Of a DNA stretch of 64,000 nucleotides, positions 14,683-25,095 are shown in pieces. The translations under genes were made by a program, and so were the position numbers. Within the stretch, counting starts at the first letter, position 1, and every line of letters starts with the position of its first letter. Source of the DNA: a virus; IMG/VR virus record IMGVR_UViG_3300023208_000003, positions 133,100 to 197,099 of that record. The stretch is one strand, 5' to 3'. The notes beneath the pieces were generated by a model. That model was not told the DNA's origin and did no database searches. It saw nothing but the letters and a program-made list of their open reading frames with translations.

Positions 14683-15328
14683 ATCGTTAAAGCAATTTCT
14701 ATGTGAAGATGAAAATTTAACTCTTGAGAGGGGTGTTGAAGTTTTGCAAATGCTTTTTGGTGATCAATTTGTTATTGACGGTGATAGAGTCAACTCTACT
14801 CAAAGTTTATCATTGAATTTTTCACATAAACGCTGGTTCAAAGGAACACACATGCCTGTAAAATTTGGCAAAATTCAAGGTAATTTTAATGTAACAAATA
14901 TGGATTTTAATTACAATAAAGAACTACCAATTTACGTTAAAGGAAATTGTTATCTCACTAGTAATGGATTTAAAACCATTGAGCATTTTCCTGAGTATAT
15001 AGGCGCAATTCTTTCAATTTACGATAATCCAGAAATAAAAACGTATTCTAACATTCACAAACACGTAAAATATTGTGGAAAGGGAATAGTAATTGATCCT
15101 CTTCACTGCCCATATCTTGGTTTTCTTTTAGTTAAAGATAACTTATCAATTTTTAACATCAAATCATATTTAACTTTTGATATTTCAGTAGTAATGGGCG
15201 ACCCTCATAATGAAGAAGCTTTTCAAGCAAAGCAAATCATTAACGATTACAAAGTTAAAAACGGCGATTTACTTGATTGCAAAGCTGAATTAATAGAACA
15301 AGGACTTACAGAGTTTGCGAAAATATAA
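14672..15328 (+). CDS. Paralog family copy 12, between terS and terL
   Basis: Start MQNKSLKQFLCE; ends DCKAELIEQGLTEFAKI. Confidence 0.8.
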   Translation: MQNKSLKQFLCEDENLTLERGVEVLQMLFGDQFVIDGDRVNSTQSLSLNFSHKRWFKGTHMPVKFGKIQGNFNVTNMDFNYNKELPIYVKGNCYLTSNGFKTIEHFPEYIGAILSIYDNPEIKTYSNIHKHVKYCGKGIVIDPLHCPYLGFLLVKDNLSIFNIKSYLTFDISVVMGDPHNEEAFQAKQIINDYKVKNGDLLDCKAELIEQGLTEFAKI

Positions 15329-15393
15329 TATCTATCGATAATCTTATTCAGATTAGCCCATAAATAAATGAAAGTACCAATCTTTCATATTTT

Positions 15394-16257
15394 ATGGCAA
15401 ACATATACATCAAAAGAGCTTTCGCAGAAAGTGAATATACGTACAATGAAGTTCTTGAACTCGAACGTTGTACAAATGATCCAATCTACTTCATAGAAAA
15501 ATACGTAAAGGTTCAGCACCCAACACGAGGACCTGTCCCATTTATTCTGTATGACTACCAGAGACACATGATCGATGTCATACATAACAATAAAGACTCG
15601 ATTATCTTGTGTTCCAGACAGCTTGGTAAGACCACGGTAGTAGCAATCTATCTACTTTGGTTAACCACATTTTTTGAGGACAAGCTTGCTATTATTGCAT
15701 CAAAGGCAAACAGTCACGCGATTGAAATTATGTCTCGCATTAAGTTTGCTTATGAGGAACTTCCGCACTGGTTAAAAGCAGGTTGCAAATATTACAATCG
15801 TCACAGCATTGAATTTGATAACGGCTCAATCATAAAGTCAGAAGCAACAACTGAAAAAACAGGTCGAGGCAGTTCGCCATCAATTTTGTTCCTTGACGAA
15901 ATTGCATTTATTTCTCATAAAATTCAGGAAGAGCTTTGGGCGTCATTAACACCATCTCTTTCTACTGGTGGTAAATTTATTCTCACCTCAACACCAAACG
16001 GAGACTCTGATCTTTACGCGACTCTCTGGCGCGGCGCAATGGCTGGTACAAACAATTTTAAGCCGTTTAAAGCGCTATTTCACCAGCACCCTGAGCGTGG
16101 TCCAGAATCTGGTTACTATGAAGAAATGAAAGGTAAGCTTGGTGAGATTAAGACTCGACAGGAATTAGACTGTTGCATTGGTGAAACTGAAGTAACAGTT
16201 GAAAATAAAAATAAAATACAAAATATTTCAATAGAAAAATTATTTGAACTTTTATGA
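15394..16257 (+). CDS. terL: Terminase large subunit N-half (ATPase) fused to a 28-aa split-intein N fragment
   Basis: gp17 motifs (DPIYFIEKY, SRQLGKTT, LFLDEIAF, TSTPNG), then RQELD|CCIGETEVTV...LFELL*. Confidence 0.92.
   Translation: MANIYIKRAFAESEYTYNEVLELERCTNDPIYFIEKYVKVQHPTRGPVPFILYDYQRHMIDVIHNNKDSIILCSRQLGKTTVVAIYLLWLTTFFEDKLAIIASKANSHAIEIMSRIKFAYEELPHWLKAGCKYYNRHSIEFDNGSIIKSEATTEKTGRGSSPSILFLDEIAFISHKIQEELWASLTPSLSTGGKFILTSTPNGDSDLYATLWRGAMAGTNNFKPFKALFHQHPERGPESGYYEEMKGKLGEIKTRQELDCCIGETEVTVENKNKIQNISIEKLFELL
16171..16254 (+). mobile_element. Split intein N fragment (IntN, 28 aa)
   Basis: Block A pattern C-x-x-G-E-T-x-V, followed by a stop after 28 codons. Confidence 0.85.
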
Positions 16258-16868
16258 CAAACATAAATCATAGACAAATTTGGCAAAATAATTTCGGTTC
16301 AATACCAATTGATGAATATGGCAGAAGCTATGAAATTCATCATATAAATGGCAATCATTTTGATAATTCAATTGAAAATTTAAAATGCGTTTCAATTGAT
16401 GAACATTTTCAAATTCATTTAAGTCAAGGAGATTTTGGTGCGTGTTTTTTAATTGCTCGCAGAATGGGATTATCATCTGAAGAATTAAGCAATTTGCAAA
16501 AAGGAAATAAATTATCTGAAATTACAAAAGCTAAAATTTCAATAGCGCATAAAAGGGGACATTTTGAAGGTAAAATTAAATCATGGAATGAAGGATTTAA
16601 AGGGTATAAATTGAAGCTAAAAATTCAACGAAAAGGAAAACGTTTTTCTTCAAAAATATCAGAAGAAGATGTTATCAAAATTAAAAATGATTTTATTGAA
16701 TGGAAAAAAACTCAGCCTAACAAATTACCATTTAAACTTTCACATGAAAAAGCTTTTGCACGTTTAATAAAACCAAAATTCCCGTTATTAAAAACAGACG
16801 TAACTATAGTTAATATTCTTAAAGGCAAATCATGGAAACCAGAGATTTTGAATATAAACCCAATTTAA
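16254..16868 (+). mobile_element. Free-standing HNH homing endonuclease between the terL halves
   Basis: YEIHHINGNHFDNSIENL...EHFQIH; overlaps both flanking ORFs. Confidence 0.85.
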
Positions 16869-17929
16869 AAAAGTTAAAAATTAAAACCTTATTTGGAATG
16901 AAATCATTTGATGGAATAAGAAAAATACTTAAAAAAGGTTTAATTGAAATTCAGACACACCATTTTAATTTAAAATGTTCATTGACCCATAAAGTTTTAA
17001 CTGAACGAAATTGGATTTCTGCAGATGAATTACAGGTTGGTGAAAAAATTGAAACTATTAATGGTGAAGAAGAAATTATTTCAATTTCAATAGATCATGA
17101 AAAAGAAGAAACTTTTTATGATTTAGTAAATGTTGAAGGTGGAAATACATATCTAACCAATGGAATTGTTTCACATAATTGTGAGTTCTTATCATCTGAT
17201 GCACTATTAATTAATACTTTGCGCCTTATTGAGTTAAAAGCTTCCCTACCAATCTCTGAAGAACTCGGATTTAAATACTGGAAACCGATTGGAGGTCGCG
17301 GAAAAGTTTATCTGATGAGCGTGGATATAGCAACCGGAAACGGTAATGATTTCTCAGTTATTGATGTGTTTGAATTTCCATCTCTTGAACAAGTGGTTCA
17401 ATGGCGCTCAAACGTTATGAACATTCCGATGCTTTACCAAGCAATAAAATACATGCTTTCAATGTTGACAAGACAAGATTCACACGGATTTAGACCTGAT
17501 GTTTTTTGGACATTTGAACGTAATGGAGTTGGTGAAGCAATCAAAGCGCTCCTTTTCAATGATGAAAAACCAAATGAATTTGCTGAACTTGTAAGCGATA
17601 AGCCAGATGAAATGGGAATGAACACGTCTGGTAAGACAAAAATTCTTGCATGCCTTCACGTAAAGCAACTTGTTGAAAAACAAAAAGATGGATTAAAGCT
17701 AAATTCAGATAAAACAATTTTTGAGCTTCAAAATTTTGTTGCTTCTGGCGGTTCCTACGCAGCAAAGAAGGGAGCAACAGACGATACTGTTTCATCTCTT
17801 CTTTTGATATCTAGACTGTTAAAGCAAATCTGTATGTACGATGACCGCGCAATTGATATTCTTTACGATTATTCTAACCAATTTGATGACACACAAACAG
17901 AAGCACCTATGCCTATTTTAATCGTGTAA
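16832..17929 (+). CDS. terL: Split-intein C fragment (116 aa) fused to terminase large subunit C-half (nuclease)
   Basis: Block B (SLTH), F/G (FYDLVNV...NGIVSHN|CEFLSS); then VDIATGNGNDFSV, FERNGVG, HDD-like TDDTVSS nuclease motifs. Confidence 0.92.
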   Translation: METRDFEYKPNLKKLKIKTLFGMKSFDGIRKILKKGLIEIQTHHFNLKCSLTHKVLTERNWISADELQVGEKIETINGEEEIISISIDHEKEETFYDLVNVEGGNTYLTNGIVSHNCEFLSSDALLINTLRLIELKASLPISEELGFKYWKPIGGRGKVYLMSVDIATGNGNDFSVIDVFEFPSLEQVVQWRSNVMNIPMLYQAIKYMLSMLTRQDSHGFRPDVFWTFERNGVGEAIKALLFNDEKPNEFAELVSDKPDEMGMNTSGKTKILACLHVKQLVEKQKDGLKLNSDKTIFELQNFVASGGSYAAKKGATDDTVSSLLLISRLLKQICMYDDRAIDILYDYSNQFDDTQTEAPMPILIV

Positions 17930-17977
17930 TAATATTGAAACAATTTGGTGATATGATAAACTTTTTGAGGTAGGCTT

Positions 17978-18745
17978 ATGTTACGCGTAAAAACTTGTTG
18001 GATTTCAGATCTTCATCTTGGTAGTACTCAGTGTCAAGCTGATAAACTCCTTGAGTTTCTTAAAGTGCTTGATGCTCAAAAGCTTTACTTAGTCGGTGAT
18101 ATTATTGATTTTTGGGCTCTTTCAAGAAAATCATTTTGGCCAACTGATCACAATACAGTGGTTCAAAAAATACTTCGAATGGCGCGGCATGGTGTTGAAG
18201 TCATTTATATTCCAGGTAATCATGACTCTCCAGTACGTGATTTAGCTGATATGACATTTGGAAATGTACAAGTTAAGCTAGAAGATATTCATGAGCTAAA
18301 AAATGGTAAAAAGTTTTTAGTTACTCATGGCGACCAATTTGATACAATATCAAAGCATTATGGTTGGCTTTCAAAATTCGGCGCCATAGGCTATGACATT
18401 TTGCTTCAGCTAAATCGTTTTACACGATTAATTCAAAAGCTTTTTAACATTGAATCTCACTTTTCACTGTCTTCATTTATAAAGTACAAAGTTAAGAACA
18501 TTGTAAAATTTATAAGTGATTATGAGAATGAAATTTGTGAAATTTTAAAGAATGAAGAACTAGATGGAATAATTTGCGGGCATATTCATCATCCTGAGCT
18601 AATAAAAAATAATGATTTCATTTACTTGAACTGCGGTGATTGGGTAGAAAGCTTAACAGCAATTATTGAAACTTATGAAAATGAATTAATTTTAATTAAA
18701 AAAATTGAAAATGACATTATTGAAATTAAAAAATTATCCATCTAA
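17978..18745 (+). CDS. plcP: PlcP-like phospholipase C (LpxH2-family metallophosphoesterase)
   Basis: ISDLHLG, VGDIID, WP..HNTVVQKILR, PGNHD, HGDQFD, CGHIHH, NCGDWVES; next to an Agt-like GT4. Confidence 0.8.
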   Translation: MLRVKTCWISDLHLGSTQCQADKLLEFLKVLDAQKLYLVGDIIDFWALSRKSFWPTDHNTVVQKILRMARHGVEVIYIPGNHDSPVRDLADMTFGNVQVKLEDIHELKNGKKFLVTHGDQFDTISKHYGWLSKFGAIGYDILLQLNRFTRLIQKLFNIESHFSLSSFIKYKVKNIVKFISDYENEICEILKNEELDGIICGHIHHPELIKNNDFIYLNCGDWVESLTAIIETYENELILIKKIENDIIEIKKLSI

Positions 18746-19670
18746 ATAAAAATCCAAGATTTTTAGTGGCCGTTTCTTTTAAAAATGATATTTTTTGATC
18801 AATTTTAAACGTATATTGACTTTTTACTTCAATAATAGTATTAATTTTTGGAATAAAAAAGTCAGGATAATATCGCTTAATTTTGTTATCATATTCATAG
18901 ATAATTTTGGGCATATCTTTTTTAGAAAAAAGAATTTCTTCTTCATTAAATCCTTCATCTAATAACAAAGAAAATGCCTTTGGCTCAAATCCTTGTAATA
19001 AAATTACTTTACCGGATGGTAAAGTAAATTCATGTTTCTTTTTAAATCTGTTATTACAACAAATTTCTGCTACTGATGGAATATGTGCTGGATAAAATAC
19101 ATCATATTTTTCATTTAAAACTTGTTGTAAATAATTTTGATCAAAATTATGTGGACGTTTATATTTTTGCATCATTGTTTGAGCTTTTTTAAATTTTATG
19201 CTGTCTAATTTACTAATATTATCCACTCCATATCTTTTAATTAAGGTAAATTTACATTTTTGTTTAACATCTTTACGTTGAAAGACATTAGTAATTCCAT
19301 ATTTTTCTAAAAGACTTTTTTCTAAATTTTGCTTTATAAGCTGTTTTCCTTCATTGCTTGATGCTTCTCTTTTAGAATGAAATAATGCATATCCATATTG
19401 TAATCCAGGAAAATCAATTTCCCGTCGAGTTGCCGGGCCACGCCGCCACATACATTCAAGTCCGCTAATTGGACATATTGGAACATTTACGTGACCTAAT
19501 AACAAGTGATATATTTTACGTTGAAAATTCCATTCATTTGGAATTTTCAACGTTTTAAAAGCATTTTCGATTTCAAAAAACCAACTTTCTTTTTGAATAA
19601 AAAATAGATTTCTTCGTTTTCTTTTTGGATTTGATAAATATTCAAGAATTTTACTTTGTATAATAATCAT
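18726..19670 (-). mobile_element. Putative homing endonuclease (PD-(D/E)xK C-terminus)
   Basis: Antisense and AT-rich; KYG..N repeats; RYYPDFFIP..NTIIEVKS. Confidence 0.65.
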
Positions 19671-19718
19671 GTTAATATCTCCACTATTAGCATAATAAAC
19701 TATTTATAGGAAAAAATA

Positions 19719-20753
19719 ATGACAAAATTGCTAATTGTAACTGATGCGTTTAGACCTCAAGTATCAGGCGTAGTTCGTACACTTGAAAAAACTATTGATG
19801 GGCTTTCTGCTCATTTTAATATTACAGTAATTCATCCAGAGATGTTTAAAACATTTCCTTGCCCAACTTATCCTGAAATTAAGTTAGCTTGGCCTGGAAT
19901 GAAACGATTAGCAACACGAATAAAGCACGCAAAACCAGATTTTATTCACATTGCAACTGAAGGTCCTTTAGGGCTTTTAGCCCGCTGTTACTGCGTTAAA
20001 AATAATCTCAGATTTACAACCGCATATCATACAAAGTTTCCTGAATATATTGAAAATAAGTTAAGTGTTCCTGCCAGCTTAACTTACAAATACTTCAAAT
20101 GGTTTCATAAACCTGCTTCTCGCGTCTTTGTCGCAACAGAATCACTTGAAAATGAATTGAAAGCTCGAGGCTTTCAAAACCAATTTTGGCGCTGGTCTCG
20201 TGGTGTCGATATTGATCTTTTTAATCCTTCACGCGATTATAAAAAAGGACCACCGTTTGCTCTTTATGTAGGTCGAGTTTCAAGTGAAAAAAATATTGAA
20301 GCTTTTTTAAATGCAAAAACAGCATTTTTAAAAATAGTTGTCGGTGATGGCCCGCAACTTGAACAGTATAAAAAGCAATATAAATGTGATAGTATAATAT
20401 TTGTTGGAGCTAAGCATTCAACAGACTTAGCTAATTTTTATGCTTCTGCTAAGGTAGTAGTTTTTCCATCAAAAACTGATACGTTTGGTTTGGTAACTCT
20501 TGAGGCTTTAGCAAGCGGAACGCCAGTGGTTGCGTTTAACGTGCCTGGTCCTGGTGATGTATTGCCAGCATACTTAAAGGGGTATCTATCAAACGTAGGA
20601 ACTCTTGTAGAAAGCGATAATGAAATAGGAGCCGCAATTAATTATTATTGTGAATATTATAAAAATGAAGTTCCTCGTCAGTATGTGCTTGACAATTTTA
20701 CGTGGGAAATAGCTACTCAGCAATTTAAAGATGGTTTAGTTTTGATGAAATGA
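19719..20753 (+). CDS. agt: GT4 glycosyltransferase, Agt-like (diacylglycerol glycosyl/glucuronosyltransferase)
   Basis: IVTDAFRPQVSGVVRTL, FPCPTYPEI, IHIATEGPLG, FTTAYHTKFPEY, TDTFGLVTLEALASG. Confidence 0.8.
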   Translation: MTKLLIVTDAFRPQVSGVVRTLEKTIDGLSAHFNITVIHPEMFKTFPCPTYPEIKLAWPGMKRLATRIKHAKPDFIHIATEGPLGLLARCYCVKNNLRFTTAYHTKFPEYIENKLSVPASLTYKYFKWFHKPASRVFVATESLENELKARGFQNQFWRWSRGVDIDLFNPSRDYKKGPPFALYVGRVSSEKNIEAFLNAKTAFLKIVVGDGPQLEQYKKQYKCDSIIFVGAKHSTDLANFYASAKVVVFPSKTDTFGLVTLEALASGTPVVAFNVPGPGDVLPAYLKGYLSNVGTLVESDNEIGAAINYYCEYYKNEVPRQYVLDNFTWEIATQQFKDGLVLMK

Positions 20754-21331
20754 ATGATAAAAAAGAGGTTATTAAGATGCTTAAATTTTTGATGATGTTA
20801 TTTCTTTCAAATCTTGCTTTTGCCAGTAGTCCTAATGTTTCAACCGCTACGTATGATATCCCTGAGTTAATGATTTTTCGTGACGATGGCGTAAAGATAA
20901 ATATCAAAGATGAAACAATGGGGTACAAACCCATTGCCATCAATTTTGTTTTTACCACGTGCGCTGGCATTTGTCCTGCGTTAAGCCGCACGTTTGTAGC
21001 AGTTCAGAAGCAATTAGGCGAGGACGCTTCGAAAGTTCATCTCATTTCATTTTCAATTGACCCTGAAAATGACACTGTTAGCGTCTTACAGGAACATATG
21101 AAAAAATTAAAGACGCAACCAGGTTGGAATTTTTACACTGGAACCTTTGATCAAATTATTCAAATTGAAAAAGCATTTCACGCTTATTTTGGTGATAAAA
21201 TGAATCACCAGCCGTTAACCATTATTCATCGACCTGGTGAAAGTACTTGGACTCGTATTGATGGTTTCGCCACAGCCAATCAAATTGTGTCAGAGTTGAG
21301 AAAAAACGATGAAGTTGTTACCATAAAATAA
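20750..21331 (+). CDS. SCO1/SenC family copper chaperone with signal peptide
   Basis: INFVFTTCAGICP (CxxxC), ISFSIDPENDT, YTGT; hydrophobic N-terminus; ATGA overlap with agt. Confidence 0.8.
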   Translation: MNDKKEVIKMLKFLMMLFLSNLAFASSPNVSTATYDIPELMIFRDDGVKINIKDETMGYKPIAINFVFTTCAGICPALSRTFVAVQKQLGEDASKVHLISFSIDPENDTVSVLQEHMKKLKTQPGWNFYTGTFDQIIQIEKAFHAYFGDKMNHQPLTIIHRPGESTWTRIDGFATANQIVSELRKNDEVVTIK

Positions 21332-21369
21332 TGAAATTCACAAAGTGCAATAATGTTTGGTACAATTAA

Positions 21370-21398
21370 TTGTACTTTTTTAAAAATTGTGCTATAAT
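21370..21398 (+). promoter_or_regulatory. Sigma70-type early promoter TTGTAC-N17-TATAAT
   Basis: Same motif recurs at 38626, 42156, 45462, 49219 and 62665. Confidence 0.7.
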
Positions 21399-21404
21399 AA
21401 GCAC

Positions 21405-21689
21405 ATGAACACTGATATGGCTGGGCCTGACGCTAGAATTGAAATCATTGACGACATTTCACTTACTCTGAGACTTCGTCATGATTTCATTTATGAAAGT
21501 CGTTTTACGCCTACTTCAGTTCACTTAGACGTTTGTAGAAATAACCAAACGGTAACACTCTATTTACAACTTATGCCTAATTATGAAATTTTAATTTCAT
21601 TTGAAGGCATTTTTTACCAAACCGTTACAACAGATGAAGCGCTTTCGTTAATTGAAATGTTGATTGAGGAACATAATGGAACTTTTTAA
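21405..21689 (+). CDS. Hypothetical protein
   Basis: ORF immediately after the early promoter. Confidence 0.55.
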   Translation: MNTDMAGPDARIEIIDDISLTLRLRHDFIYESRFTPTSVHLDVCRNNQTVTLYLQLMPNYEILISFEGIFYQTVTTDEALSLIEMLIEEHNGTF

Positions 21690-22857
21690 CAAGCTCTACA
21701 TTGCTCTCACCTCGAGCTCAATTGCGCATAACATGCGTTCTATTCGTGAAAACAGCCCGTATCATCGTGAGGAAAATGTGTGGAAGCACACGTTGATGAC
21801 ACTTGACTCATACTGCGTAAACATTGGGCCGCACCGCACCCAACGGATGGAGCTTATCACGATGACAGCTCTGCTTTTTCATGATGCTGGAAAGCCGCTG
21901 TCACGTCAAGAAAAGTACAGTGACAGCCGTGGCAACTATCAAACTTTTGGTGGTCATGAACCTGTTTCAGCTCGAGTGTTTGAAGATTTCATGATGACAA
22001 ACCCCGAACTTATGGCTGAACTTCGCTTTGACAGCAATGAGTGGCGTTTGATTAAGTGGTTGATTGAAAATCATCTTCCGTACGACATTAAGGATAACCA
22101 AAAGTGTCGCGCTTTGATAACTGATTGTCATTCACACGGTCTGGGAGCGTTGCAAATGTTCTTAGATGTTTTGCGCTCTGACGCAAGAGGCCGCATCTCT
22201 GATGATCATGAAGCGAAGCTCTCAAAGGTCGAGCAATGGATTGCCGAGTTTGTTACTTTGGAACCTTTGTCTTACAGAATAGTTGAGCAACCGCAGCCGG
22301 CAAATCATAAGATTGCTACATTTTTGATTGGTCCTTCTGGTGCTGGTAAGTCCACGTATGCCCGTCAATTGGCTACTAATGCCAAGATTTTTTCACTCGA
22401 TGAGCTTCGCTTGGAGTTTTACTTTACGTCAGGTTTTAAGACATCAAATAATTCTAAGCGTGATTACGCACTCGCTTGGAAGTATTGCACAATGGAAAAG
22501 TCAAAAGAATTTGACCAGTTTTGGAGAGCTCGTTTTATTGGATTAATGAACGCTGGTCACGATTTGGTTATTGACAACGTGAACTCGACCAGAAAGTCTC
22601 GCGCGTTCTATGTTGCAGAGCTTCGCAAGCGCAATTATTTCATTGTTTCAATGGAATTTCCGATTGCGCTTTCTACGGTAATTGAGCGTCAATTGTTGCG
22701 TGATGATAAGGAAGTACCAGTTGAGAGTGTAACGCAGCAATACTACGCTATTAGTCAGCCGCGAGTTGGAAGCGAGGTTGATGAAGCGTACGTAATATTT
22801 GATGGAAACTTTCAAAAATCTGCTGCTAAGCACTACAAAGTAGTGTACAACAGCTGA
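21676..22857 (+). CDS. HD-domain phosphoesterase plus P-loop polynucleotide kinase (HD-Pnk-like)
   Basis: H...HD (NVWKHT, LLFHDAGKP), GPSGAGKSTYA, VIDNVNSTRKSR. Confidence 0.75.
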   Translation: MELFNKLYIALTSSSIAHNMRSIRENSPYHREENVWKHTLMTLDSYCVNIGPHRTQRMELITMTALLFHDAGKPLSRQEKYSDSRGNYQTFGGHEPVSARVFEDFMMTNPELMAELRFDSNEWRLIKWLIENHLPYDIKDNQKCRALITDCHSHGLGALQMFLDVLRSDARGRISDDHEAKLSKVEQWIAEFVTLEPLSYRIVEQPQPANHKIATFLIGPSGAGKSTYARQLATNAKIFSLDELRLEFYFTSGFKTSNNSKRDYALAWKYCTMEKSKEFDQFWRARFIGLMNAGHDLVIDNVNSTRKSRAFYVAELRKRNYFIVSMEFPIALSTVIERQLLRDDKEVPVESVTQQYYAISQPRVGSEVDEAYVIFDGNFQKSAAKHYKVVYNS

Positions 22858-22888
22858 TTTCTTGTTATAATAACACTTACCCGCTGAT

Positions 22889-22922
22889 AAGGGAACCTAT
22901 TATAGGTTCCCTTCCTCTTTTG
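22889..22922 (+). terminator. Intrinsic terminator-like hairpin
   Basis: AAGGGAACCTAT / ATAGGTTCCCTT inverted repeat followed by a pyrimidine tract. Confidence 0.6.
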
Positions 22923-23000
22923 TCTAAGACTTCCCCTTGTTGATATGCCCAATTTATTTGGGCTTTTGTTGCCGTTGTCCTACAAAAACTGTTGACAGTC

Positions 23001-23008
23001 TATAAATA
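23001..23008 (+). promoter_or_regulatory. T4-type late promoter TATAAATA
   Basis: Exact consensus; other exact copies at 28020, 32172, 40493, 60515 and 61221. Confidence 0.7.
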
Positions 23009-23077
23009 ACATTGTCACCTGCCAAACAGGTGTCATTTGTACGTTTATTTGTTTATTTTGTTTAGGAGAATATTATC

Positions 23078-23974
23078 ATGGCATCAGAACGTTTTACCCG
23101 TTTAACTGGAAATTACAACAAATCTGCTAATTCCGAATCACCATACAAAAAGTTTTTTCCATTCTGGAAAATGGAAGATGACACAACTACAGTTGTTCGT
23201 TTTCTTCCTGATCGCAACGAAAGCAATCCATTAGGTTTTCTAGTAGAAAATCTTCAACATGAGCTCACCATCAACGGTGAAAGAAAGCGCGTTCCTTGTT
23301 TGTCAATGTATGGCGAAAAATGTCCTATTTGTGAACTCTCTCGTAAGTATTACAATGAGAAAAACGAAGATCTTGGTTACAAGTACTATAAGAAAAAGTC
23401 CTATATCGGACAAGTCATCGTAGTTGAATCTCCAATTGAGACTAACGATTCTGACCTAGTAAAGCTTATTGAATTTGGCCCAAAGATTTTCAAAGCAATT
23501 CAAGCTGGATTTAAATCTGGTGATCTTGAAGAAAGTCCAGATGATATGAAAGCTGGTTACAATTTTCGCATCAAGAAGACAAAGTCTGGTAAGTGGTCAG
23601 ATTACGGAACTTCAACATTTTCACCAAAGCAAACTCCTCTTGACGACTCTCTTATTGAGAGTTTAACTCGATATGATCTATCTGAATATCGTACACCGTA
23701 CATGGATTATGATACTGTTGCAAACATGCTTCTCGCTGATCAAACTGGCGCAAGTTATGAAGGCGATACAGATTCTGGTCATGAAATTCCTGATGATTCA
23801 AGTACGACATCAAGTTTAAAAACTGAAACTACAGAATCTTCTGCTCCGTCACAATTTAATGCTTCTGAATCAAATGATGATAAATTTGATTCAGCTGAAA
23901 ATAATACAAGCAAAGCTTCAGCTGTTCTTGAAAGATTAAAGAACCGCAAGGCAGCACGTCAGACAGCCGAGTAA
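23078..23974 (+). CDS. ssb: Single-stranded DNA-binding protein (gp32)
   Basis: VRFLPD, CLSMYGEKCPICE, FGPKIFK, GYNFRIKK; acidic C-terminal tail. Confidence 0.9.
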   Translation: MASERFTRLTGNYNKSANSESPYKKFFPFWKMEDDTTTVVRFLPDRNESNPLGFLVENLQHELTINGERKRVPCLSMYGEKCPICELSRKYYNEKNEDLGYKYYKKKSYIGQVIVVESPIETNDSDLVKLIEFGPKIFKAIQAGFKSGDLEESPDDMKAGYNFRIKKTKSGKWSDYGTSTFSPKQTPLDDSLIESLTRYDLSEYRTPYMDYDTVANMLLADQTGASYEGDTDSGHEIPDDSSTTSSLKTETTESSAPSQFNASESNDDKFDSAENNTSKASAVLERLKNRKAARQTAE

Positions 23975-23988
23975 AAACTTAGGAATTA

Positions 23989-24017
23989 AAAGGCAAAGCA
24001 TTTAATGCTTTGCCTTT
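23989..24017 (+). terminator. Hairpin after ssb
   Basis: AAAGGCAAAGCAT-TTA-ATGCTTTGCCTTT. Confidence 0.65.
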
Positions 24018-24027
24018 GGAGCTTGTT

Positions 24028-25095
24028 ATGTTACCATTTTTGAATAAATTTAAAAAGACGATTGATAAACTAGAAACAGTTTATACGTCATTCGGACCGC
24101 CTGATTTTTGGTATAATACCGGAAATTACGCGATTAATAAAATTATGTCTGGTTCTTTTACCAAAGGCATTCCACAAGGTAGAATTACATGTTTAGCTGG
24201 TCCATCTGGTGCCGGTAAATCATTTTTACTTTGTAACATTTTACGAGATGCTCAGAAGCAAGGAGCATTTGTTTTAGTTCTTGATTCCGAAAATGCTCTT
24301 GATGATAACTTTATGTCAGCTATCGGAATTGATACATCACCTGATAAGCTCATGTACGTTGGCGTAACGCTATTCTCTGATGTTGTTTCTGTAATTTCAG
24401 ATTTTATTCAGAGTTATGAAAAGGAATACGGCAAGGATAATCCTAACTCGCCTAAAGTTGTAATAGCACTTGATTCACTTGATATGCTTTTGACAGATTC
24501 TGAAGTTTCTCACTTTGAATCAGGCGTTCAAAAAGGCGATCAAGGACAGCGAGCCAAGCAGTCAAAGCACATGCTTAGAACTGCTGTTTCACGAATAAAG
24601 CGATTGCCGATGGCAATGATTGTTACACATCAAGTTTACGCAAACTCTGATTTGCTAAACGGTGAAGGTAATTGGATTATCAATAATGCAATTCGTTACT
24701 CTGTTTCTCAAATCCTGCTTATCACGAAGCTTAAATTAAGAGAGGCCGGCGAAGTTCTTGGTATTCGCATGAGAGTAGAATGTTTTAAATCACGCTTTGC
24801 AAAACTTGGTAGTCGAGTTGAAGTCGATGTTCCGTACACAAAGGGAATGAGTCCTTATTCTGGATTTCTTGATCTTATGGAAGCAGCTGGGATTGTAACT
24901 TCTGCAGGTGCCTGGAAAACATTAGTTATGCCTGATGAACAAATCAAGTTTCAATCAAAACAGCTAAATGAAGAGTTGGTCTCAAAAATGTTGAGTCACC
25001 CAAAAATAACCGGTGAAGAAATAGCCATAACAACACTCATAGACTCAATGTCAGAAGACCCTGAACAAGAACTACAAACGGAGGCAATCCAATGA
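24028..25095 (+). CDS. uvsX: RecA-like recombinase UvsX
   Basis: NTGNYAINKIMSG, AGPSGAGKS, LDSENALD, IALDSL. Confidence 0.92.
   Translation: MLPFLNKFKKTIDKLETVYTSFGPPDFWYNTGNYAINKIMSGSFTKGIPQGRITCLAGPSGAGKSFLLCNILRDAQKQGAFVLVLDSENALDDNFMSAIGIDTSPDKLMYVGVTLFSDVVSVISDFIQSYEKEYGKDNPNSPKVVIALDSLDMLLTDSEVSHFESGVQKGDQGQRAKQSKHMLRTAVSRIKRLPMAMIVTHQVYANSDLLNGEGNWIINNAIRYSVSQILLITKLKLREAGEVLGIRMRVECFKSRFAKLGSRVEVDVPYTKGMSPYSGFLDLMEAAGIVTSAGAWKTLVMPDEQIKFQSKQLNEELVSKMLSHPKITGEEIAITTLIDSMSEDPEQELQTEAIQ

Follow-up and report, generated by a model that had tools for sequence, protein, structure and literature searches.

The stretch of DNA analysed here, referred to as the window, is 64,000 nucleotides long and forms the final 64 kb of the IMG/VR virus record IMGVR_UViG_3300023208_000003 (197,099 bp, with a CheckV completeness of approximately 55%). 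Directly after the terL gene, the window carries two genes which are the subject of this report: plcP, encoding a metallophosphoesterase that resembles LpxH and belongs to the PlcP (phospholipase C) clade, and agt, encoding a GT4 glycosyltransferase of the Agt/GTcp clade of diacylglycerol (DAG) glycosyltransferases.

The original prediction described a metallophosphoesterase followed by a GT4, placed directly after terL in phage context. Both open reading frames (ORFs) and all of the motifs it quoted are present in the translations, and the setting is that of a phage, with Pfam matches to terL upstream and to gp32 and a UvsX/RecA homologue downstream. The order of the two genes was also borne out, but they are not contiguous. 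An antisense DUF7487 gene, overlooked in the prediction, lies between them, and it belongs to an insertion relative to a sister phage (L002), a 219,530-bp contig with 21 ORFs in synteny with the record (NCBI GCA_038824965.1, JAWBPO010000001.1). Table 1 lists the features of the region.

Table 1. Features of the plcP-agt region, with positions in the window
Feature	Position	Strand	Basis and remarks
terL	15394..17929	+	Next gene 5′ of the cassette; read as three ORFs that overlap in different frames
TerL-N	15394-16257	+	Pfam Terminase_6N 7e-14
Free-standing HNH gene within the terL region	16254-16868	+	Pfam HNH_3 1.7e-9
Intein-C-like piece and TerL-C	16832-17929	+	NCBIfam intein_Cterm 19.8 bits (cut-off 15.6)
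Sigma-70-like promoter match	17935..17962	+	Consensus scan: TTGAAA, 16 nt, TAAACT, with TG before it
plcP (255-aa LpxH-like metallophosphoesterase, PlcP clade)	17978-18745	+	Pfam Metallophos 6.6e-12
DUF7487 gene (314 aa, antisense)	18726-19670	-	Pfam DUF7487 8.9e-42; homing-endonuclease-like
Insertion relative to sister phage	~18783-19707 (~925 bp)		DNA alignment of both junctions with L002
TATAAATA, match to T4 late-promoter consensus	19701..19708	-	31 nt upstream of the DUF7487 start codon
agt (344-aa GT4 glycosyltransferase, GT-B, Agt/GTcp clade)	19719-20753	+	Pfam Glycos_transf_1 6.7e-23, Glyco_transf_4 2.5e-15
SCO1/SenC-type copper chaperone	20750-21331	+	Pfam SCO1-SenC 7e-19; start overlaps the agt stop
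gp32	23078-23974		Pfam; downstream of the cassette
UvsX/RecA homologue	24010-25095		Pfam; downstream of the cassette

Identity of the first enzyme

LpxH is the enzyme from which PlcP must be told apart. Both have a calcineurin-like fold, a helical lid for lipid substrates, and the same metal ligands, and LpxH provides the nearest solved structures. The AlphaFold model of the window PlcP has a mean predicted local distance difference test score of 84.7, with low values in the helical lid (approximately residues 121-180), and its closest solved structures are LpxH only, at 17-21% identity. No PlcP structure was found in the PDB.

The two enzymes differ in profile scores, in one motif, and in phylogeny. 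Against the LpxH equivalog models, the window PlcP scores 54.9 bits for PRK05340 (cut-off 134) and 50.2 bits for TIGR01854 (cut-off 190.35). Six bacterial genomes with the closest relatives were checked, and each encodes a true LpxH (236-334 bits) together with a paralogue (30-46 bits), i.e., both enzymes coexist in the same bacteria. The translation contains the motifs YIPGNHDSP, FWPTDHNTVVQK, THGDQFD, and NCGDWVES. The third phosphoesterase motif is thus GNHD in the window and GNHD/E in the clade, whereas Methylomonas LpxH has GNRD at the same column. The set of metal ligands (DxH, GD, GNH, H, and GHxH) is complete, and its residues D11, H13, D41, N81, H117, H202, and H204 are invariant in 40/40 PlcP-type sequences. 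Finally, an IQ-TREE phylogeny (LG+C20, 55 rows) splits LpxH (six sequences above the cut-off) from PlcP-type sequences with support of 100/100. The assignment of the first protein to the PlcP type and not to LpxH, as originally predicted, is well supported.

In the same tree, the PlcP of the window and sister phage is sister to PlcP from Methylococcales (96/92), and a FastTree phylogeny of 168 rows agrees. Most other viral copies form virus-only clades beside Pelagibacteraceae, and an approximately unbiased test rejects uniting the window PlcP with them (p = 0.001, for a group picked after the tree was seen). The closest bacterial proteins are from Methylomonas, Methylomicrobium, and other Methylococcales (56-62% identity). 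Experimentally validated PlcPs are 46-51% identical to one another (PMC8528852, PMC9239053), and the window PlcP is 44-50% identical to plcP-locus orthologues from the same families or genera as the validated proteins, which stand in here for those proteins themselves (e.g., 48-50% for Pelagibacteraceae, 46% for the Burkholderia cepacia complex, and 45% for Pseudomonas). The plcP gene is reported to be present across proteobacterial methanotrophs, and in type Ia methanotrophs it has no adjacent agt (PMC9239053); the Methylomonas plcP locus agrees with the type Ia pattern.

Identity of the second enzyme

Agt has been validated in SAR11 HTCC7211 and in Burkholderia cenocepacia (PMC4796936, PMC8231724, PMC13691135), and its clade is reported to have less than 25% identity to other GT4 enzymes (PMC8231724). 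The phage protein, which contains the motifs VTDAFRPQVSGVVRTL, FPCPTYPEI, and HIATEGPLG, is 42-49% identical to the GT4 encoded directly 3′ of plcP in Pelagibacteraceae, Burkholderia, Cupriavidus, Paraburkholderia, and others. In a FastTree phylogeny of 102 sequences it falls within an 86-row Agt clade, which is split (support 99) from low-identity GT4 sequences found near plcP in betaproteobacteria.

The residues of the phage protein are also those of the family. Of the two UDP-sugar motifs, GRVAxEKN appears as GRVSSEKN (A to S) at residue 185 and FPSxTDTFG as FPSKTDTFG at residue 249. Fifteen residues have been mutated in GTcp (PMC8231724), and we mapped them via a Pelagibacteraceae orthologue with matching numbering: 14/15 are identical in the phage protein, the exception being the DAG contact T162, which is S160. 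The His104-Asp256 dyad of GTcp corresponds to H104 and D254, with Asp where other GT4 enzymes have Glu, and the DAG contacts R163 and W320 correspond to R161 and W329. In some Agt homologues a diacylglycerol kinase domain is fused to the enzyme, as would suit a DAG substrate, and this matches the plcP-agt-dagK operon known from B. cenocepacia (PMC13691135). Two large phage-like contigs (262 kb and 126 kb) carry the closest relatives of the phage Agt, each with a metallophosphoesterase gene just upstream and PhoH nearby. These results support the predicted assignment of the GT4 to the Agt/GTcp clade instead of to the lipopolysaccharide (LPS) transferases.

Phage origin and selection

The gene content of the record is T4-like: beyond the window, Pfam matches include a ribonucleotide reductase, clamp loader, family-B DNA polymerase, RNA ligase, and PhoH. 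A megablast search of window positions 15000-25000 against phage records gave no match. The sister phage has terL (509 aa), PlcP (79% identical), and Agt (77% identical) in that order, followed by gp32 and uvsX. This contig was deposited in a 'Candidatus Nitrosotenuis' metagenome-assembled genome yet is a T4-like phage fragment, so its placement in an archaeal bin is likely a binning error.

An identical Agt occurs on six contigs, two of which were examined: one is 99.98% identical to the window (L194), and the other is 98-99% identical (L193) and has the full terL-plcP-DUF7487-agt-SCO1 order. Between the window and sister phage, the ratio of nonsynonymous to synonymous substitution rates (dN/dS) is 0.076 for plcP and 0.089 for agt, with synonymous sites near saturation. 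GC content at third codon positions (GC3) is 22% for plcP and 21% for agt, compared with 23-33% for terL, gp32, and uvsX and 68% for the Methylomonas plcP. Both genes are under purifying selection and have a phage-adapted composition. Because this composition and the dN/dS values are joined by independent assemblies, and by synteny with the sister phage, a host chimera is excluded, in line with the original prediction.

Recurrence in viruses

Single-protein scans of IMG/VR gave no PlcP match and two GT4 loci; the query peptides are poorly conserved, and an alignment was used as the query instead. The alignment-based scan found at least 544 IMG/VR stretches encoding PlcP relatives. We surveyed the best 80 of these, 69 of which have enough downstream sequence to judge, and agt lies downstream of plcP on the same strand in 33/69, overlapping or abutting it in 27 of the 33. 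The pair, for which the original prediction had proposed a survey of phage genomes, thus recurs widely. The viral plcP loci are flanked by T4-type replication and core genes, and PhoH adjoins in several. At least two of the 80 'viral' loci look cellular: one is identical to a Paraburkholderia gene (L021), and the PlcP of the other, on a 480-kb contig (L046), nests among alphaproteobacterial sequences.

Deposited phage genomes are much sparser in these genes. Among 50,697 deposited phage records, a PlcP-type gene was found only in Pelagibacter phage Mosig, Synechococcus phage S-SRM01, and a few metagenomic records, where it is annotated as LpxH, and none has an Agt-clade gene at 35% identity or above. 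Neither protein has a family of its own in PHROGs. The 'LpxH' proteins of Mosig EXVC030M and S-SRM01 belong to the same PlcP-type family as the window PlcP, at 41% and 37% identity, but sit on other branches of the tree, in auxiliary-gene neighbourhoods, and without a neighbouring agt. In Mosig (L008, MT647606.1 93031-94866), the gene is annotated as UDP-2,3-diacylglucosamine hydrolase and is divergent beside a pstS-like gene; in S-SRM01, it is within a psbA/hli island. Mosig is a cultured system in which a phage PlcP-type gene could be tested.

A mosaic origin, with plcP and agt coming from different donors, was considered and dropped as unsupported: the phage contigs that share this Agt clade (L190-L192) have PlcPs that also fall close to Methylococcales and betaproteobacteria in the tree.

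Proposed pathway

Validated PlcP and Agt enzymes are known from several bacteria: the PlcPs of Sinorhizobium meliloti and Phaeobacter MED193, PlcP and Agt/GTcp of SAR11 HTCC7211, PA3219-PA3218 of Pseudomonas aeruginosa, and the systems of Methylosinus trichosporium OB3b and B. cenocepacia (BCAL2364-2366) (PMC4796936, PMC8231724, PMC8528852, PMC9239053, PMC13691135). The phage pair resembles the bacterial PlcP-Agt operon in families, order, strand, and catalytic and substrate-binding residues. The two genes adjoin or overlap in the sister phage and most viral loci, and the identity of the phage proteins to family- or genus-level orthologues (42-50%) is similar to that between validated members. 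The phage pair differs from the operon in its location beside terL and replication genes of a lytic-type T4-like phage, in its phage-adapted composition, in having no dagK and no Pho box that we could find, and in being split by a homing-endonuclease-like gene.

We consider it likely that the phage has acquired from bacteria, and encodes in working form, a two-step pathway of lipid renovation. PlcP, as a Mn-type metallophosphoesterase with an LpxH-like fold and a helical lid, would remove the phospho-head group from glycerophospholipids of the host, and the resulting DAG would remain in the membrane. Agt, as a retaining GT4, would then transfer sugar from a host UDP-sugar (glucose or glucuronate, possibly galactose) to the DAG. 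The products would be phosphorus-free glycolipids, so the bilayer would survive. E. coli expressing the SAR11, Pseudomonas, or Burkholderia Agt has been seen to make MGDG and/or GADG. During infection, the net effect would be a shift of membrane phosphorus into soluble phospho-alcohols, which host or phage phosphatases could feed into nucleotide synthesis. Expression would presumably be timed by phage promoters and not by host PhoB, and the predicted benefit to the phage is a gain of phosphorus.

An E. coli-sized cell contains approximately 2×10^7 phospholipids, and a 360-kb genome needs approximately 7×10^5 phosphorus atoms. By these rough figures, the phospholipid pool would be equivalent to tens of genomes, and to more in hosts with internal membranes.

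Several points weigh against the proposal. PlcP yields DAG and a phospho-head group rather than free phosphate, so a further phosphatase is needed, and no dedicated phosphatase for phospho-alcohols was identified. No Pho box (CTGTCAT-N4-CTGTCAT-like, with up to three mismatches) was found near plcP or agt, and matches across the window are close in number to expectation (7 versus 5.05), with the proviso that the host's own Pho box may differ. Pho boxes of the Pseudomonas/E. coli type are likewise not enriched 5′ of plcP in 78 viral loci relative to random stretches. Genes for PstS, a UDP-glucose dehydrogenase, and a sugar-nucleotidyltransferase are absent from the 197-kb record, which is approximately 55% complete. 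Co-transcription of agt with plcP could suffer from the antisense insertion that lies between them. The comparisons with validated enzymes were made through their orthologues, as described above. A further weak point is that no cultured phage carries both genes, with Mosig and S-SRM01 being isolates that have a plcP-type gene alone.

A more far-reaching reading can be given in two parts, which we hold together and only tentatively, as possible rather than probable. One is that large aquatic T4-like phages routinely convert their hosts' phospholipid membrane to a glycolipid membrane during infection, using membrane phosphorus as a reserve for the genome. The other is that the plcP of this lineage came from Methylococcales-type bacteria, which would point to a methanotroph host with stacked internal membranes as an unusually rich phosphorus store. 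The methanotroph marker pmoC was not found in the phage record.

Alternative explanations

Lipid remodelling could be real and yet benefit the phage through the changed membrane instead of through phosphorus, which we think unlikely. Such a membrane might block superinfection via receptor presentation, resist membrane-active agents, or keep the envelope stable over a long latent period with host phospholipid synthesis off. Agt glycolipids are mainly bulk lipids of the inner membrane and are not known as classical phage receptors, and in other phages the cassette adjoins phoH or pstS, both of which count against this reading. The lack of a Pho box and pstS in this phage, on the other hand, suits a changed-membrane role, as expression would follow the phage programme regardless of phosphorus status. 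In P. aeruginosa, PlcP-dependent remodelling alters the membrane proteome and the sensitivity to antibiotics, and phage attachment is influenced by lipid composition (PMC8528852, PMC9804370, PMC9938194); phage glycosyltransferases have also been read as surface modifiers in pelagimyophages (PMC7029224). Against this, in an oligotrophic-water virome, mislabelled 'lpxH' is among the commonest LPS-pathway auxiliary genes at the surface and subsurface but not at 1,000 m (PMC10653327).

Two other explanations deny the pathway itself. The first gene might encode the LpxH of the lipid A pathway and the second a glycosyltransferase for LPS or the cell wall, with the pair modifying LPS. Database labels of the homologues ('UDP-2,3-diacylglucosamine diphosphatase' and 'glycosyltransferase involved in cell wall biosynthesis') say as much, and the only solved relatives of PlcP are LpxH. 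This is nevertheless very improbable given scores far under both LpxH cut-offs, GNHD in place of GNRD, the fully supported tree split, the co-occurrence of bacterial relatives with true LpxH, and a GT4 with the Asp-for-Glu catalytic signature and DAG-binding residues of GTcp. Even less credible is that the genes are host DNA misassembled onto a phage contig or decaying, functionless passengers. The identity of the closest bacterial PlcPs is unusually high for a phage gene, but the gene order is kept in a 78%-identical sister phage from a separate assembly, identical Agt comes from other samples, GC and GC3 are as in the phage and not as in Methylococcales, dN/dS is approximately 0.08, and both frames are intact. 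A working PlcP-Agt pathway remains the reading that we prefer.

Novelty and significance

The pair had been presumed uncharacterised in phages, and the literature agrees as far as it is searchable (i.e., outside subscription journals): no paper was found that describes a phage-encoded PlcP-Agt or treats plcP as an auxiliary metabolic gene. In a pelagimyophage survey, phage glycosyltransferases are taken to modify LPS and phospholipases go unmentioned (PMC7029224), and virome studies file 'lpxH' under LPS synthesis (PMC10653327, PMC9611531). The identities of the enzymes are well supported; the phosphate-mining purpose is inferred and less secure.

Phosphorus limits phage production in many waters, and the known viral answers (pstS, phoA, and phoH) work by uptake or signalling. 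Like plcP and agt, the pstS, phoA, and phoH genes of T4-like cyanophages and pelagiphages are host-derived genes in aquatic T4-like phages. Their products act on external phosphate, however, whereas PlcP-Agt would mobilise an internal membrane pool, and doing so with the bilayer intact would be a different strategy. Either phoH or pstS adjoins plcP in several viral loci and in Mosig; evidence of PhoB sites was not found here. In the phage of the window, phoH is away from the cassette (G000:19188-19976). If the more far-reaching reading is true, infection would alter how lipids and phosphorus are budgeted in phosphorus-poor waters, and virome surveys would have to be re-read for their 'lpxH' entries, correcting a systematic mislabel. 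The bacterial pathway is well characterised, so the predictions are sharp.

Insertion between the two genes

Four things are particular to the window: the nuclease insertion between the genes, the Methylococcales affinity of PlcP, the adjacency to terL, and the added SCO1 gene. The insertion separates plcP and agt by 973 nt, and the distance in the sister phage is 45 nt. The DUF7487 ORF matches PHROG families of homing endonucleases and endonucleases (1e-9 to 2e-7), its protein has a D...EVK motif at the C-terminus, and it has a GC content of 25.7% and a GC3 of 13%. The last ~18 codons of the gene extend beyond the inserted DNA into the old spacer and the 3′ end of plcP. The gene is a later, selfish insertion and not a component of the pathway. 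The T4 late-promoter consensus TATAAATA is suggestive of a late promoter for it, although matches across the window are about as frequent as expected (7 versus 6.5).

The order plcP-DUF7487-agt-SCO1 is common to contigs from other samples which are 98-99.98% identical to the window. The region exists in three states in nature, because the sister phage, the window, and the L193 variant differ in their insertions in terL and between plcP and agt. Genes are also wedged between plcP and agt in other viral loci: an HNH gene (L050, 6714-7421) related to the HNH gene in the window's terL, a RimK-like ATP-grasp gene (L088, 1970-2860), and a further gene in L072. Insertions seem to have entered the plcP-agt junction repeatedly.

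Neighbouring features

The terL gene is itself interrupted. An element of 1,006 bp (16174-17179) is without counterpart in the 98-99% identical L193 variant, where the blastn alignment jumps from 16173 to 17180. It is a recent, polymorphic insertion, since terL is intact (508-509 aa) in both L193 and the sister phage, and it is separate from the plcP-agt insertion. The Pfam Intein_splicing match in this region is below threshold. Elsewhere in the record, a family-B DNA polymerase ORF (G000:C1:25294-27699) has an Intein_splicing match at its end (1.5e-8), which suggests a second intein-type element in the core genes of this phage.

The sigma-70-like promoter match sits inside the 48-nt spacer between terL and plcP, where the TTGAAACAATT block is kept in the sister phage. 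Promoter-like matches near the cassette are no commoner than in shuffled sequences by the same consensus scan; as a candidate element, it suggests expression under the phage programme.

The translation of the SCO1/SenC-type gene shows a CAGIC motif and, at the N-terminus, a signal or anchor sequence. By the gene orders of L002, L193, and L194, the gene is present in the phage of the window and its 98-99% identical variants and absent from the sister phage. A word-based search found only eight relatives, at 34-48% identity. The gene is probably outside the lipid pathway, but copper handling by a phage with a PlcP closest to those of methanotrophs may deserve attention.

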